Virus record (IMG/VR): IMGVR_UViG_2529293151_000014
Source of the DNA: a virus
Lineage: Duplodnaviria > Heunggongvirae > Uroviricota > Caudoviricetes
Direction: 5' to 3' (one strand)
Length of the DNA stretch: 45,248 nt
Numbering within the stretch: position 1 is the stretch's first letter; the number at the start of each line of letters is the position of its first letter. The position numbers and the translations under genes are program-made. Below, in pieces: positions 1 to 45,248 of this stretch. The notes beneath the pieces are model-generated. The model was not told where the DNA came from. It was given only the letters and a program-made list of their open reading frames with translations, and searched no databases.

Positions 1-1074
1 TCATTTGTCGATTTCAATTTTGTCCCATTCCCGTCCACGGCTGTCCCTATACCGCGCCGCCATTGAATCTGATTTATGCCCGAGAAGACGTTGAGCAAAC
101 TTATCGCCAATCTGGTTCCGGTATAGCCTCGCTGACAGGCTACGCAGTTCATGGAATGTTGGCGGGTTTCCATCAAATGAGAGTCCAGATGCATTTCTCG
201 CCTTTGTAAAATACTTTGATACTGTTTTCGGGGAAAGCGGATCGTGATGCTTTGATGCGATTATAGTTTCACTGCTGCTGGCATCCCTGCATTTCTGTAG
301 TGTATCAGCCAATGAGATATTGAGCGCGTCAATCGTTAGCATTAGCGGAATGGCGAGTTTAGCCCCTGTTTTACTCTGTTCAATGTGAAGATGGTTGTCG
401 TTTATGTCTGACCATTTCATTCTGCACAAATCGCCGACTCTCTGCCCTGTAACGACGGCCAAATCCATCGCCAGCCTTAGCCAGATAGGGAGAGGTTCGG
501 CTGCATGGTAAATCTCGACATACTCATTAGCTGTCAGCCTTGAGCGCCTTACTTCTGACTTTGCTGTACGGGTTGCTGTTACCGGATTCGTTGCCACATG
601 CCCCTCGGCTATTGCTTCACGAAAAACGTCAACAAGGGTTGACCTGATTAATTTTGCGGAAGCTGCTTTACCTTCTGCTACGTAGGTGTTTAGCATTGCT
701 GCCACTTCTTTCGTTGATATGTCAGTGAGCGGTTTGTCCGGCAATTTTCTTCGGATTGCCCTGATTTTGCTGGCGTAGTCGAGTAGAGTTTTCGGCCTGA
801 TCCCCCTTTCGGTGAGGATTCTTTCATATCGGTCAAGCCACACATGAAGAGTGATTGCGTCACCGCCTTTAATTCTGTCTATCAGTGATTTGCGTCCGCT
901 GTCTGAGAGTAACTCAATGTTGGCCTGTATAGCTTCAGTGATTGCTATCCTCCTGTCTCGGCCTAATCCAAACTCTTTACCCGTCCTTGGGTCCCTGTAG
1001 CAGTAATATCCATTGTTTCTTATATAAAGGTTAGGAGGTAAATCCCGGCGCTCATGACTTCGCCTTCTTCCCAT
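1..1074 (-). CDS. int: Tyrosine site-specific integrase (phage lambda Int type)
   Basis: 357-aa ORF. N-terminus MGRRRSHERRDLPPNLYIRNNGYYCYRDPRTGKEFGLGRD and the C-terminal catalytic region (HELRSLSARLY, LLGHKSD, Y near the C-terminus) match lambda Int nearly residue for residue from memory. Stop codon occupies positions 1-3, so the CDS is complete but attL/attR is outside the window. Confidence 0.95.
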   Translation of the reverse strand: MGRRRSHERRDLPPNLYIRNNGYYCYRDPRTGKEFGLGRDRRIAITEAIQANIELLSDSGRKSLIDRIKGGDAITLHVWLDRYERILTERGIRPKTLLDYASKIRAIRRKLPDKPLTDISTKEVAAMLNTYVAEGKAASAKLIRSTLVDVFREAIAEGHVATNPVTATRTAKSEVRRSRLTANEYVEIYHAAEPLPIWLRLAMDLAVVTGQRVGDLCRMKWSDINDNHLHIEQSKTGAKLAIPLMLTIDALNISLADTLQKCRDASSSETIIASKHHDPLSPKTVSKYFTKARNASGLSFDGNPPTFHELRSLSARLYRNQIGDKFAQRLLGHKSDSMAARYRDSRGREWDKIEIDK

Positions 1075-1270
1075 TTCTGATCCTCTTCAAAAGGCTACCT
1101 GTTACTGGTCGATTTAAGTCAACCTTTACCGCTGATTCGTGGAACAGATACTCTCTTCCATCCTTAACCGGAGGAGGGAATATCCTGCACTCGCGTACCC
1201 ATCGACGAACTGTTTCAAGGCTTCTTGGGCGCCGCTGGCGTGCGTTCCACTCCTGAAGTGTTAAGTACAT
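1052..1270 (-). CDS. xis: Excisionase Xis (lambda type)
   Basis: 72-aa ORF MYLTLQEWNARQRRPRSLETVRRWVRECRIFPPPVKDGREYLFHESAVKVDLNRP, essentially identical to lambda Xis as recalled. Overlaps the int start as in lambda. Confidence 0.9.
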   Translation of the reverse strand: MYLTLQEWNARQRRPRSLETVRRWVRECRIFPPPVKDGREYLFHESAVKVDLNRPVTGSLLKRIRNGKKAKS

Positions 1271-1296
1271 CGCAAAGTCTCCGCAATTACACGCAA

Positions 1297-1318
1297 GAAA
1301 AAACCGCCATCAGGCGGC
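1297..1318 (-). terminator. Putative rho-independent terminator upstream of xis (minus strand)
   Basis: On the minus strand a GC-rich 5-bp stem (CCGCC/GGCGG, loop 4 nt) is followed by a run of six T (plus-strand A-run 1297-1303). The stop codon of the upstream small ORF lies in the hairpin. Confidence 0.45.
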
Positions 1319-1477
1319 TTGGTGTTCTTTCAGTTCTTCAATTCGAATATTGGTTACGTCTGCATGCGCTATCTGCGCCCATATCATCCAGTGGTTATAG
1401 CAGTCGTTGATGTCCTCTGCTTCGATAACCCTGTCGAATGGCTCTCCATTCCATTCACCTGTGACTCGGAAGTGCAT
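1310..1477 (-). CDS. Small hypothetical protein (55 aa)
   Basis: ORF below the 60-aa track cut-off: MHFRVTGEWNGEPFDRVIEAEDINDCYNHWMIWAQIAHADVTNIRIEELKEHQAA. Preceded by GGAGATGATAA-ATG (good SD spacing). Same strand as the operon. Confidence 0.35.
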   Translation of the reverse strand: MHFRVTGEWNGEPFDRVIEAEDINDCYNHWMIWAQIAHADVTNIRIEELKEHQAA

Positions 1478-1664
1478 TTATCATCTCCATAAAACAAAAC
1501 CCGCCGTAGCGAGTTCAGATAAAAGAAATCCCCGCGAGTGCGAGGATTGTTAGTTGCACTCTGCTGCTGCCTTAGCCATTACCATATCCACCAAACTTCA
1601 CCAGACATGATTCTCGCAATCACTATCATCACCAAAGTGATAATCACAACTTTAACTGGCGGCA

Positions 1665-43252: not shown

Positions 43253-43262
43253 GGGGTGAGGC

Positions 43263-43901
43263 ATGTGGGAAGACACAATACTTACCCAATACTCAGCAAG
43301 TAAAAAATTATTGTCCATCATAGACACATTTAACCAGGCAGTGAGCCTTGATGATTTCACAGATGAATTCATCAAAAAGGTATGGGATTTAACTACCTGC
43401 GAAGCATTCGGGCTTGATATGTGGGGGAAAATTGTTGGCATAAGTAGATATATTGTTGCGCCAATAGATAGCGATTCATTTGGATTTAGTGAAGCAGATG
43501 ATGGGAGTACTGATTACCCGGCGCCATTTAATAATTCTCCGTTTTACGGCGGCATTCAGGAAACAACGAATGTCAGGCTTGGGGATGATGCTTACAGAAC
43601 ATTAATACTCTGCAAGGCTTTTACTAACATCAGTGTGGCAACCATTCCTGATATAAATAAATTTCTTAAAATACTTTTTTATCAACGAGGCAGAGCATAT
43701 TGTGTCAATTACAGAGATATGACCATTGGCATAAATTTTGAGTTCTCACTTGCTCCCTACGAAGAATCGATTTTAACAAATTACGATGTGACTCCTGTAC
43801 CAAGTGGAGTTCAGGTAAATATCAAACAAATTGTAAGCCCATACTTTGGTTTTGCTACAGATGCATATCCATTTAATGACGGCACATTTTATAGGAATTA
43901 A
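43263..43901 (+). CDS. Tail protein (gpI-like position)
   Basis: 212-aa ORF between the baseplate J-like and tail fibre genes. Confidence 0.7.
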   Translation: MWEDTILTQYSASKKLLSIIDTFNQAVSLDDFTDEFIKKVWDLTTCEAFGLDMWGKIVGISRYIVAPIDSDSFGFSEADDGSTDYPAPFNNSPFYGGIQETTNVRLGDDAYRTLILCKAFTNISVATIPDINKFLKILFYQRGRAYCVNYRDMTIGINFEFSLAPYEESILTNYDVTPVPSGVQVNIKQIVSPYFGFATDAYPFNDGTFYRN

Positions 43902-43903
43902 GC

Positions 43904-44803
43904 ATGAATCGTTCTGACTCACCTAAAAAACAACCTAAGCCATTTGGAGTTAATGGACAGAGAGTGGCAATATTGCCAACCACCCCTGCAGGTGATAACT
44001 CAGCATCGTATGAACAGGGGTTTCCTCCAATAACAATGATCCTGAAATCTGCTGGCGGTTTGCCGCCAAAAGGCCAGGATATGAACCAAATTTTATACGA
44101 ACTTTCTGCTCTGGGTAGATGGTCGAGCACCGGTGCGCTGAATACTTTTGATTCTGAATTTGCATCGGAGATTTCTGGATATCCGTCAGGGGCGATGCTC
44201 ATCTCGAACGATGGGGAAAGAATATTCATTAACACAACAGAAGGAAATCTATCCGATCCAAACAGCAATGGTGCCGGGTGGAAAGATGTTTTTTCATACC
44301 TTGGTTTAGGAGAAGCGGCGAAAAGGGATGTGGGCACGACAGTCGGAACCGTTGCCGCTGGTGATGATTTACGCATAACAGGAGCACTTCAAAAGGCAAA
44401 TAATCTTTATGAGTTAACAAATAAATCTGACGCAAGAGCTAATCTTGGGTTAGGAACCGTTGCAACAAAAAACGTGGGAAATAGTGCTGGGCAAATACCT
44501 GATATGTCTTACTGGTCTTCACCGGCAGGCGGAATTAATTTCCCGAATGGATTCCAGATGCGATTCGGTGCTATCGCTGGTAATGGTGAAAAATTATTTT
44601 CTACGCCATTTACAAACCAGTGCTATGGAATTGTTTTCGGACAAACATATACATCCAACTATTGGATATTCAGCCCAATGTACAGAGCGTCAGACCTCAG
44701 TAAAACAGGTTTTGCTTTTATAAATAAGGTATGGTCTGGCGTTCCAGGGACAGCATCCCAGGATGCTGGTGAATCTGTTTTTTATCTTGCAGTAGGGTAT
44801 TAA
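43904..44803 (+). CDS. Tail fibre protein
   Basis: 299-aa ORF with Gly/Ser/Asn-rich beta-type composition (NANLGLGTVATKNVGNSAGQIPD...), followed by a tail fibre assembly gene. Confidence 0.8.
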   Translation: MNRSDSPKKQPKPFGVNGQRVAILPTTPAGDNSASYEQGFPPITMILKSAGGLPPKGQDMNQILYELSALGRWSSTGALNTFDSEFASEISGYPSGAMLISNDGERIFINTTEGNLSDPNSNGAGWKDVFSYLGLGEAAKRDVGTTVGTVAAGDDLRITGALQKANNLYELTNKSDARANLGLGTVATKNVGNSAGQIPDMSYWSSPAGGINFPNGFQMRFGAIAGNGEKLFSTPFTNQCYGIVFGQTYTSNYWIFSPMYRASDLSKTGFAFINKVWSGVPGTASQDAGESVFYLAVGY

Positions 44804-44804
44804 T

Positions 44805-45248
44805 ATGGAAATAGTTTATAGCGCCTCAAATAACAGTTTTTTCGCTAAAAATGATGTGGCGAAATATGAACAGGCCGGATGGGAACTTGCTGATATTGTC
44901 GAAGTGACATATGACACTTACCTGGAATTTATTGAAGACAGAACGTTGCAAGGGAAAGTACGCATCGCGGGTGATGATGGCCTTCCCACCTGGGGGGAAA
45001 TTCCACCGCCAACTCATGAGGAACAAATTGCCGCAGCCGAACTGGAAAAGCAGCAATTGATTAATCAGGTCAACGAATACATATACAGTAAGCAATGGCC
45101 TGGTAAAGCAGCGATTGGTCGCCTGAAAGGTGAGGAACTGGCGCAATATAATTTGTGGCTGGATTATCTGGACGCACTGGAACTGGTCGATACTTCCGGT
45201 GCGCCAGATATTGAATGGCCTGCGCCTCCGGCAGTTCAGGCCAGATGA
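44805..45248 (+). CDS. Tail fibre assembly protein (Tfa-like chaperone)
   Basis: 147-aa ORF MEIVYSASNNSFFAKNDVAKYEQAGWELADIVEVTYDTYLEF... with the Tfa-type N-terminus. Stop codon is the last three bases of the window. Confidence 0.8.
   Translation: MEIVYSASNNSFFAKNDVAKYEQAGWELADIVEVTYDTYLEFIEDRTLQGKVRIAGDDGLPTWGEIPPPTHEEQIAAAELEKQQLINQVNEYIYSKQWPGKAAIGRLKGEELAQYNLWLDYLDALELVDTSGAPDIEWPAPPAVQAR

Follow-up and report, generated by a model that had tools for sequence, protein, structure and literature searches.

A lambdoid Escherichia coli prophage at the HK022 attachment site combines P22-type immunity with predicted contractile-tail genes of the Edno5/E217 lineage

Mosaicism among lambdoid phages has been textbook knowledge since HK97 and HK022 were compared. 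Edno5, whose induced particles proved on imaging to be those of a myovirus (head 68 nm, tail 74.5 x 18 nm), carries lambda-like cI, cro and cII genes together with a P22-like ImmI region (PMC6372524), and GF-2, Edno5 and several Klebsiella phages have been grouped as temperate relatives of the capsid/terminase lineage that concerns us here (PMC10888812). We analysed a stretch of 45,248 nucleotides (IMG/VR record IMGVR_UViG_2529293151_000014; the whole stretch is called the window below), which is a gene-bounded part of a temperate lambdoid Escherichia coli prophage of ~45.7 kb located at the HK022 attachment site. An initial annotation made from the letters of the window had described a mosaic genome, and this was borne out, with the gene classes it listed all lying where a lambdoid map would put them. 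We consider it very probable that this temperate prophage was built by recombination of interchangeable modules.

We compared every protein of the window with six-frame translations of lambda, P22, HK97, Mu, SfV, SPP1, Edno5 and E217 by tblastn (threshold E<=1e-3 against Mu, SfV and SPP1; ST64B itself was left out of the comparison), and the DNA with lambda, P22, HK97, Edno5 and two E. coli relatives. Below, L001 denotes the E. coli A41 locus, L002 the prophage of E. coli 'numer 3' and L005 Edno5. Module junctions were placed where homology to each reference begins or ends and were then checked against terminator-like hairpins. Protein families were taken from Pfam and PHROGs, defence genes were sought with PADLOC, and solved structures were found by sequence match to the PDB. 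Surveys of E. coli used 5426 complete genomes.

The window is a 100% match to part of contig AQBD01000111.1 of the draft E. coli assembly GCA_000357845.2. The map of its open reading frames (ORFs) contains ~70 genes, which run leftward from position 1 to ~9,700 and rightward beyond, and GC skew switches as these directions predict; a search for tRNA genes in the window found none. Within sibling assemblies the element lies between torS, on the int side, and torT-torR-torCA, on the side of the tail fibre assembly (Tfa) gene, and one 535-kb sibling contig contains both prophage ends flanked by torS and torT. The host-phage junctions (loci L018 and L020) lie outside the window, ~75 nt before position 1 and ~390 nt after 45248. 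They can be aligned to both arms of HK022 attP, with which attL and attR share a 7-bp core, AGGTGAA. This core was seen only on aligning both flanks to HK022 attP; no direct repeat with an exact match of at least 10 nt was found between the prophage flanks. The integrase had been called lambda-like, which holds at the level of the family, but it is identical to lambda Int at only 267 of 357 positions (75%) and to HK022 Int at 343 of 357. We therefore assign it by sequence as a lambda-family integrase of HK022 specificity, in agreement with the torS-torT location.

Next, we asked which lineage the virion genes belong to. The predicted contractile-tail gene set is complete (sheath, tube, gp25-like initiator, J wedge, tape measure and tail terminator), and the sheath, tube, tape-measure, baseplate and Tfa genes named by the initial annotation were all confirmed by Pfam, PHROGs or matches to E217 structures. 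Its proposal of a contractile tail on a lambdoid backbone likewise stands: the sheath falls in DUF3383 and matches solved E217 gp31, the tube falls in E217_Gp32, and Edno5, whose sheath is 75% identical, is an imaged myovirus. A siphovirus tail, looked for by homology as the outcome at odds with the sheath and tube assignments, did not emerge. Identity to Edno5 is 30-79% for head and neck genes, with gene order kept, 41-77% for baseplate genes, and 61% for the first 53% of the tail fibre, whose C-terminal half is different and whose homology to L001 stops at 44337. The terminase subunits had no tblastn match in Edno5; terL is 99.4% identical to that of L001. Together with matches to the solved E217 portal, capsid-type and wedge structures (listed in the table), these homologies place the late module in the Edno5/GF-2 (Gofduovirus) and E217/PB1 lineage.

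The late module is rare in E. coli. At least 80% of the late half is covered in 16 of the 5426 complete genomes (~0.3%), at 95-98% identity, and in all E. coli cases examined the module sits on a lambdoid chassis; one of these, the complete genome of A41, joins lambda-type lysis genes to the same late module. The capsid protein is closest to those of temperate Klebsiella phages (69%), one of which, RCIP0114, resembles the window in late gene order and has exo and ninB among its annotated genes. For the early half, the relative that is closest overall is the L002 prophage, which is 99-99.7% identical over most of 2950-20587. Its annotation lists a large terminase of the PBSX family and a portal at least 732 aa long, and judged from this annotation alone its packaging genes look P22-type.

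The early half follows a lambda-like gene order (int-xis, early left, N, repressor, cro, cII, O, P, nin, Q, lysis, virion). By megablast it is a mosaic of 93-98% matches to HK97, HK022, CUS-3 and others, with near-identity to lambda (97-98%) over ral, cII, ninB-F and Q, and to HK97 (95-98%) over several blocks. Xis is lambda-like as described (99% identical). The immunity region is assigned to P22 immC on the basis of its repressor, Cro and operators. C2 and Cro were rightly described as P22-like (199 of 216 and 58 of 61 residues identical), OR is identical to that of P22 at 77 of 80 nt, and residues 1-53 of C2, the DNA-binding part, differ from P22 C2 only at positions 2 and 16. The cII-like protein, which had also been ascribed to P22, proved instead to be lambda-type, with 95 of 97 residues identical to lambda cII as against 47 of 97 for P22 C1. 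The recombination block (4865-6842), with abc2, SSB and Rad52-type genes, is of neither lambda Red nor P22 Erf type.

Replication and late-control genes are also composite. The O-like initiator had been described as P22-like. This is true of its C-terminal 42%, which is 58% identical to P22 gp18 and 94% to HK97 O, and not of its N-terminal domain, which gave no tblastn match to the O proteins of lambda, P22 or HK97. Iteron-like repeats with a 12-nt period lie within the initiator gene at 11078-11232, as five overlapping in-register copies of a 50-nt stretch of 12-nt units (CCGCACATGA(A/T)G-like), and presumably form the origin. The same repeats also encode a repeated peptide. The exteins of the DnaB-like helicase can be aligned over their full length with HK97 P, P22 gp12 and the helicase of L002. 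For the nin region, the description of NinB to NinH as lambda-like holds from ninB to ninF (14263-16130), where the DNA is 98.3% identical to lambda and the NinB and NinC proteins are 99% identical; roi, the DUF1364 protein, rusA and ninH are HK97-type, with 15793-18594 95% identical to HK97, and neither ninG nor ninI is present in the nin region of the window. Q, S and R were correctly seen as lambda-like (100%, 99% and 98% identical), and R, a lambda/HK97-type transglycosylase, is 99% identical to that of HK97. Positions 17671-18404, from Q to the start of the late transcript, are 97.3% identical to lambda 43875-44609. Rz, by contrast with its earlier description, is only 58% identical to lambda Rz, against 97% for HK97 and 94% for P22.

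A block resembling P22 immI interrupts the tail operon. It has the P22 layout, with a divergent mnt gene followed by arc-ant and an Ant antirepressor, and is bracketed by terminator-like hairpins. The site, between the tape-measure and baseplate genes, is unusual, and Edno5 has mnt/arc/ant there too (L005 13943-15360). E. coli A41 instead fills it (L001 25819-30716) with genes for Panacea-domain and LexA-family proteins and for a different antirepressor. Since this cargo differs from that of the window and Edno5, the site is a hotspot for cargo.

The initial annotation had placed module junctions at terminators or cargo genes, which is so for roughly two thirds of them. Strong hairpins coincide with junctions at 1497-1548 (end of int-xis), 9029-9048 (end of c2), 14292-14315 (before ninB), 20625-20645 (after Rz), and 36370-36393, 37938-37964 and 38957-38978 (immI). 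Insertions of selfish elements, defined by alignment, account for others: an HNH gene at 4124-4721, missing from L002, whose flanks are 99.4-99.7% identical; the intein at 12220-13224; a NUMOD4-HNH region at 18628-19149, present in L002 and without a counterpart in lambda, P22 or HK97; and an HNH gene at 22010-22508, missing from L001, whose flanks align. The remaining junctions are intragenic, in O (~11236), Rz (~20405), ant (~37400) and the tail fibre gene (~44337). There are three free-standing HNH genes in all, and two of these are precise insertions relative to close relatives, with alignments overlapping by 28-30 nt at the joins.

Two other accounts of how the late region came to stand beside the early one have to be weighed. 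The initial annotation held that a Mu/SPP1-type head and a contractile tail resembling that of Mu, of the kind found in SfV or ST64B, had been attached to the lambdoid backbone. The Mu F-family morphogenesis protein on which it drew is real: the Phage_Mu_F domain is present (PF04233, 3.6e-15) and is common to Mu gp30 and SPP1 gp7. Over 20% of its length the terS product locally matches the region of SPP1 gene 1, at 49%, and the order terS-terL-portal-MuF-scaffold-capsid also occurs in SPP1-like heads, being a general arrangement. Beyond the MuF domain, however, the search of the late proteins against Mu, SfV and SPP1 returned only three short local matches, one of terS to SPP1 and the others of baseplate/fibre fragments to SfV, which span 19-46% of the query, and the families differ throughout. 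Sheath, tube, portal and capsid of Mu are Phage_sheath_1, Tail_tube, Portal_Mu and Mu-like_gpT, and the portal and capsid of SPP1 are SPP1_portal and Gp13-like, whereas those of the window are DUF3383, E217_Gp32, Phage_portal_3 and an E217-type capsid with a weak match to Major_capside. On these tblastn nulls and on the families of the reference proteins we reject Mu, SfV or SPP1 ancestry of the late genes, which we regard as highly improbable. An assembly chimera, in which two prophages were joined across shared lambdoid sequence, seems even less credible. Lambdoid prophages do share long near-identical stretches and the source is a draft assembly, but both ends occur in the single 535-kb sibling contig and attL and attR match the two HK022 attP arms, which together argue that the window is not chimeric; moreover, the same lysis-to-terminase junction recurs in many assemblies, and the complete genome of A41 likewise has lambda-type lysis genes joined to this late module.

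A further alternative is that the element is a defective, cryptic prophage whose portal has been knocked out and which yields no infectious particles. The portal gene has a single in-frame TAG at 25012-25014 (codon 150), where relatives have GAG, and this codon is present in the source assembly. Translated in three frames, the gene aligns without gaps to that of L001, at 97% identity. No other gene of the window has an in-frame stop, and all except the portal are full length relative to their relatives. In at least two sibling assemblies this prophage has G at 25012 and encodes a 511-aa portal. There are five positions at which the window departs from one or more of the sibling loci; four of these (25012, 25371, 3425 and 39450) are G-to-T in the window, as a library or assembly artefact could also produce. 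An amber-suppressing host would read through the TAG. The amber codon may thus have arisen by mutation very recently or be an artefact of sequencing, and we think it unlikely, if well short of negligible, that the element is cryptic. The case shows that predictions of prophage 'intactness' need gene-by-gene checks.

The modular temperate prophage that we favour would work as follows. P22-type C2 would bind the P22-type OL and OR and keep the prophage silent, as judged by homology, until repression is lifted by RecA-stimulated cleavage of C2 or by Ant from the mnt/arc/ant block. The N-like protein and the lambda-identical Q would antiterminate early and late transcription. The O-like initiator would bind the iterons within its own gene and recruit the phage DnaB-like helicase, which would have to splice out its intein before acting, and the late operon would supply lysis proteins of lambda/HK97 type, a terminase, and a capsid with a short contractile tail from the Edno5/GF-2 and E217/PB1 lineage. 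In this account the homologies, gene order, insertion site and module boundaries are shown directly.

Several points weigh against this picture. The portal amber codon, if real, would block head assembly and make this copy defective. Neither the N-terminal (origin-binding) domain of the initiator nor the N-like protein has a close characterised relative among the phages compared, so that origin and nut specificity are assumed. Nucleotide matches in any one phage record span at most 8% of the late half, and particle properties are extrapolated from relatives at 30-79% protein identity. The tube found no solved structure by phmmer, which leaves its Pfam profile as the basis of the assignment. 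Expression, splicing, inducibility and particle shape of the element are predictions from sequence.

The intein is the one side feature that deserves brief attention. It interrupts the Walker A motif (GMGK/T) of the 797-aa helicase, between Lys201 and Thr541. Class 3 inteins have a non-nucleophilic residue 1, Trp, Cys and Thr in blocks B, F and G, and Ser or Thr at +1, and are mostly located in ATPase P-loops (PMC2807308). The window intein begins with Ala1 and has His-Leu-Trp in block B, Cys319 in block F and Thr337-His-Asn339 at its end, followed by Thr+1; in alignment with PDB 6riz its Trp, Cys and Thr fall on the WCT positions, and the class 3 DnaB inteins 6rix and 6bs8 match more weakly. 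By these signatures it is predicted to be class-3-type. The class 3 inteins in DnaB-type helicases of mycobacteriophage Bethlehem (DnaB), M. smegmatis and M. chimaera (DnaBi1) likewise combine a non-nucleophilic residue 1, Trp/Cys/Thr and Thr+1 with a P-loop site, but here the host protein is a lambdoid helicase of P22 gp12/HK97 P type from E. coli prophages, the intein carries a LAGLIDADG domain and its splicing is predicted. Alignment with the 28-52 kb stretch of Bethlehem gave no match; that stretch holds a different intein host, gp51.

The intein DNA has matches, none below 99% identity, in 30 of the 5426 complete E. coli genomes, and in 24 of these 30 the match covers at least 80% of the intein. 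A further 51 phage records contain matches of at least 99%; among the matches listed, 25 of 25 were phages carrying the Shiga toxin (Stx) type Stx2a. Within an O121 Stx2a prophage the intein DNA is identical at 1016 of 1017 positions and the flanking helicase DNA at 94.5-98.5%, and this greater conservation of the intein than of its flanks points to recent transfer. In O121 strain RM8352 (L032 1898-4291), RefSeq/PGAP calls the helicase a pseudogene N-terminal fragment with a separate C-terminal coding sequence, a split which indicates that the intein goes unrecognised in public annotation. An intein in another replication protein has already been published for the Stx phage phi24B (PMC3430580), so the helicase intein is a variant rather than a surprise.

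The coordinates of all features are collected in the table. Among accessory genes, PADLOC matched nothing in the early-left block (1313-4153), and for the ten accessory proteins screened it returned only a weak candidate-family match, for the T5orf172 gene, and its homing-endonuclease model. Defence-system cargo was rejected on this basis, the candidate being PDC-S57. The T5orf172 gene, whose match to PDC-S57 has a value of 1e-5, starts within the terminator-like hairpin that follows Rz.

Table. Features of the 45,248-nucleotide window, with the evidence for each assignment
Feature	Position	Strand	Basis or remark
int	1-1074	-	Pfam lambda arm-binding and catalytic domains
xis	1052-1270	-	100% HK97; Pfam Exc
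Small ORF	1313-1477	-	Early-left accessory ('ea') block, 1313-4153
DUF551 protein	1665-2573	-	Pfam
Ead/Ea22-like protein	2570-3244	-	Pfam
DUF7739 protein	3246-3545	-	Pfam
phrog_614 protein, function unassigned	3542-4153	-	PHROGs
Free-standing HNH_3 endonuclease gene	4113-4691	-	Pfam HNH_3 8e-15; PADLOC 'homing endonuclease' model
abc2, anti-RecBCD	4865-5158	-	94% P22, 96% HK97
Endonuclease-like protein	5172-5651	-	phrog_2340
SSB	5661-6134	-	Pfam SSB
Rad52-type annealing protein	6135-6842	-	Pfam Rad52_Rad22
52-aa ORF, kil, cIII-like ORF	6945-7368	-	100% identical to L002 proteins so named by PGAP, as are the products of the genes that follow up to 8509
P22 gene-17-type superinfection exclusion	7447-7755	-	86% P22; Pfam GP17
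ral	7931-8131	-	100% lambda
N-like antiterminator	8213-8509	-	Named via identical L002 protein; Pfam N_peptide match weak, below cut-off
P22-type immC (OL, c2, OR, cro)	8865-9984	mixed	
c2 repressor	9047-9697	-	P22 C2
OR	9698-9777		P22
cro	9778-9963	+	P22 Cro
cII	10072-10365	+	Lambda cII
oop-like terminator	10314-10341	opposite to cII	Terminator scan
90-aa ORF	10388-10660	+	phrog_2519
O-like replication initiator	10723-11610	+	Pfam Phage_rep_O on N-terminal part
DnaB-like replicative helicase (HK97 P/P22 gp12 type), intein-interrupted	11607-14000	+	Pfam DnaB, DnaB_C, LAGLIDADG_3, Hom_end
Predicted intein, 339 aa, LAGLIDADG homing-endonuclease domain	12210-13226	+	Precise insert in alignment; Hint and LAGLIDADG domains
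nin region and Q	13997-18304	+	89-aa ORF, ninB, ninC, ninD, ninE, ninF, roi, DUF1364, rusA, ninH, Q
Q	17681-18304	+	Lambda
PR'-like late promoter, TTGACT-17-TAAATT	18347-18375	+	Consensus scan
Strong tR'-like terminator	18409-18437	+	Terminator scan; predicted target of Q antitermination
NUMOD4 and HNH_3 endonuclease gene	18628-19149	+	Pfam NUMOD4 9e-12, HNH_3 1e-8; between late promoter and lysis genes
Lysis cassette: holin S, endolysin R, Rz spanin	19377-20594	+	
Variable block before packaging genes	20623-22499	+	
T5orf172/MUG113 (GIY-YIG-like)	20623-21282 (long ORF)	+	Pfam; 162 aa as called in source assembly
Gp49/Sf6 gp66 family protein	21540-21896	+	Pfam
HNH_3 endonuclease	22002-22499	+	Pfam; directly upstream of terS
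terS (Terminase_2) and terL (Terminase_6N/6C)	22501-24565	+	Pfam; PHROG terS
Portal (DUF1073/Phage_portal_3)	24565-26100	+	Solved E217 gp19 portal, 9e-31
Head and neck genes	26153-31946	+	MuF-domain protein, DUF2213 protease/scaffold, cement/decoration, major capsid protein, DUF4054, Neck1-like, E217 gp28-like collar, tail/neck terminator
Major capsid protein	28687-29727	+	Solved capsids 9b40, 8frs; weak Pfam Major_capside; E217-type
Tail/neck terminator	31431-31946	+	Pfam/PHROGs
Sheath, 496 aa	31943-33433	+	Pfam DUF3383 2e-106; solved E217 gp31 1e-17
Tube	33445-33879	+	Pfam E217_Gp32 6e-17
Two chaperone ORFs	33879-34501	+	TAC phrog_1932
Tape measure, 604 aa, C-terminal SLT lytic transglycosylase domain	34498-36312	+	Pfam SLT
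P22 immI-like block inside tail operon	36370-38978	mixed	
mnt-like ribbon-helix-helix protein	36381-36701	-	Pfam Arc
arc-like 53-aa ORF	36804-36965	+	
ant	37037-37915	+	Bro-N and P22_AR_C; 83% P22 Ant over C-terminal 59%
Second antirepressor-like gene	38000-38725	+	phrog_1726 antirepressor
73-aa ORF			Last gene of immI-like block, after second antirepressor-like gene
Baseplate genes	38997-43901	+	Dit-like, Pam3 gp18-type plug, hub, spike-like with gpV apex motif, gp25-like, Baseplate_J, DUF2612 wedge; Pfam, PHROG hub/wedge
gp25-like sheath initiator/wedge	41667-42026	+	PF10934 Sheath_initiator recorded for 119-aa gene at same position in source-lineage locus L020
Baseplate_J wedge	42023-43252	+	Solved E217 gp44, 9e-14
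Tail fibre	43904-44803	+	
Tail fibre assembly (Tfa)	44805-45248	+	Pfam Caudo_TAP 2e-29; C-terminus 96% HK97 Tfa over 18% of length

The main value of this analysis lies in the correction of annotation, with the late module moved to Edno5/GF-2 and E217 and the immunity region described as P22-type with a lambda cII; beyond this, the window adds one more case of lambdoid mosaicism. More tentatively, and with odds that we put somewhat against it, the window could represent an E. coli lineage of small temperate myoviruses, with a Gofduovirus/E217 virion on a P22-immC/HK022-int chassis, that is without an isolated, characterised counterpart, together with a helicase intein of class 3 that is currently mobile and spreading among E. 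coli lambdoid prophages, Stx2a phages included. If that were true, the intein could make phage replication hinge on conditional protein splicing.

Among described systems, Edno5 and GF-2 (Gofduovirus) resemble the window in having int, early-left genes, a cI-type repressor, cro, cII, O/P, nin-like genes, Q and lysis genes, a syntenic virion module from portal through fibre, and the same placement of mnt/arc/ant. Edno5 differs in its unrelated terminase and early region and in its integrase and attachment site, and it has no annotated intein or HNH gene. The window drew its early region from the lambdoid pool of E. coli and Salmonella, with P22 immC, HK022 int and HK97-type replication. By blastn it aligns with the window in six segments of 64-72% identity, ~8.6 kb in all, which is below genus-level similarity; the usual genus criterion of the International Committee on Taxonomy of Viruses (ICTV) is ~70% nucleotide identity over the whole genome. 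E217 and other PB1-like phages (Pbunavirus) have sheath, portal, capsid, wedge, cement, collar, tube and plug proteins of the same families. Since these structural families are common to both, the tail of the prophage would be expected to act likewise, with sheath contraction driving the tube through the envelope. Unlike the window, E217 has a 66-kb genome, is virulent, lacks lambdoid regulation and has a larger tail and baseplate, and its proteins are 24-33% identical.

The lambdoid phages contribute the other half of the comparison. The window shares ral, cII, ninB-F and Q with lambda; abc2, kil-cIII, the O C-terminus, P, roi-ninH and lysis genes with HK97; int with HK022; and immC, gene 17 and the C-terminal half of ant with P22. 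Lambda, HK97 and HK022 are siphoviruses and P22 is a podovirus, and none of their structural genes is found in the window except the Tfa fragment. Shigella phage SfV, like the window, has a lambdoid regulatory chassis and a myovirus tail, but its head is HK97-like, its tail has homologues of Mu L, M, N, P and gp45-48, and the similarity amounts to only two short fragments. The combination of a lambdoid switch, an Edno5-type myovirus module and an internal immI is thus already known from other bacteria, and the window is a new E. coli member of this group.

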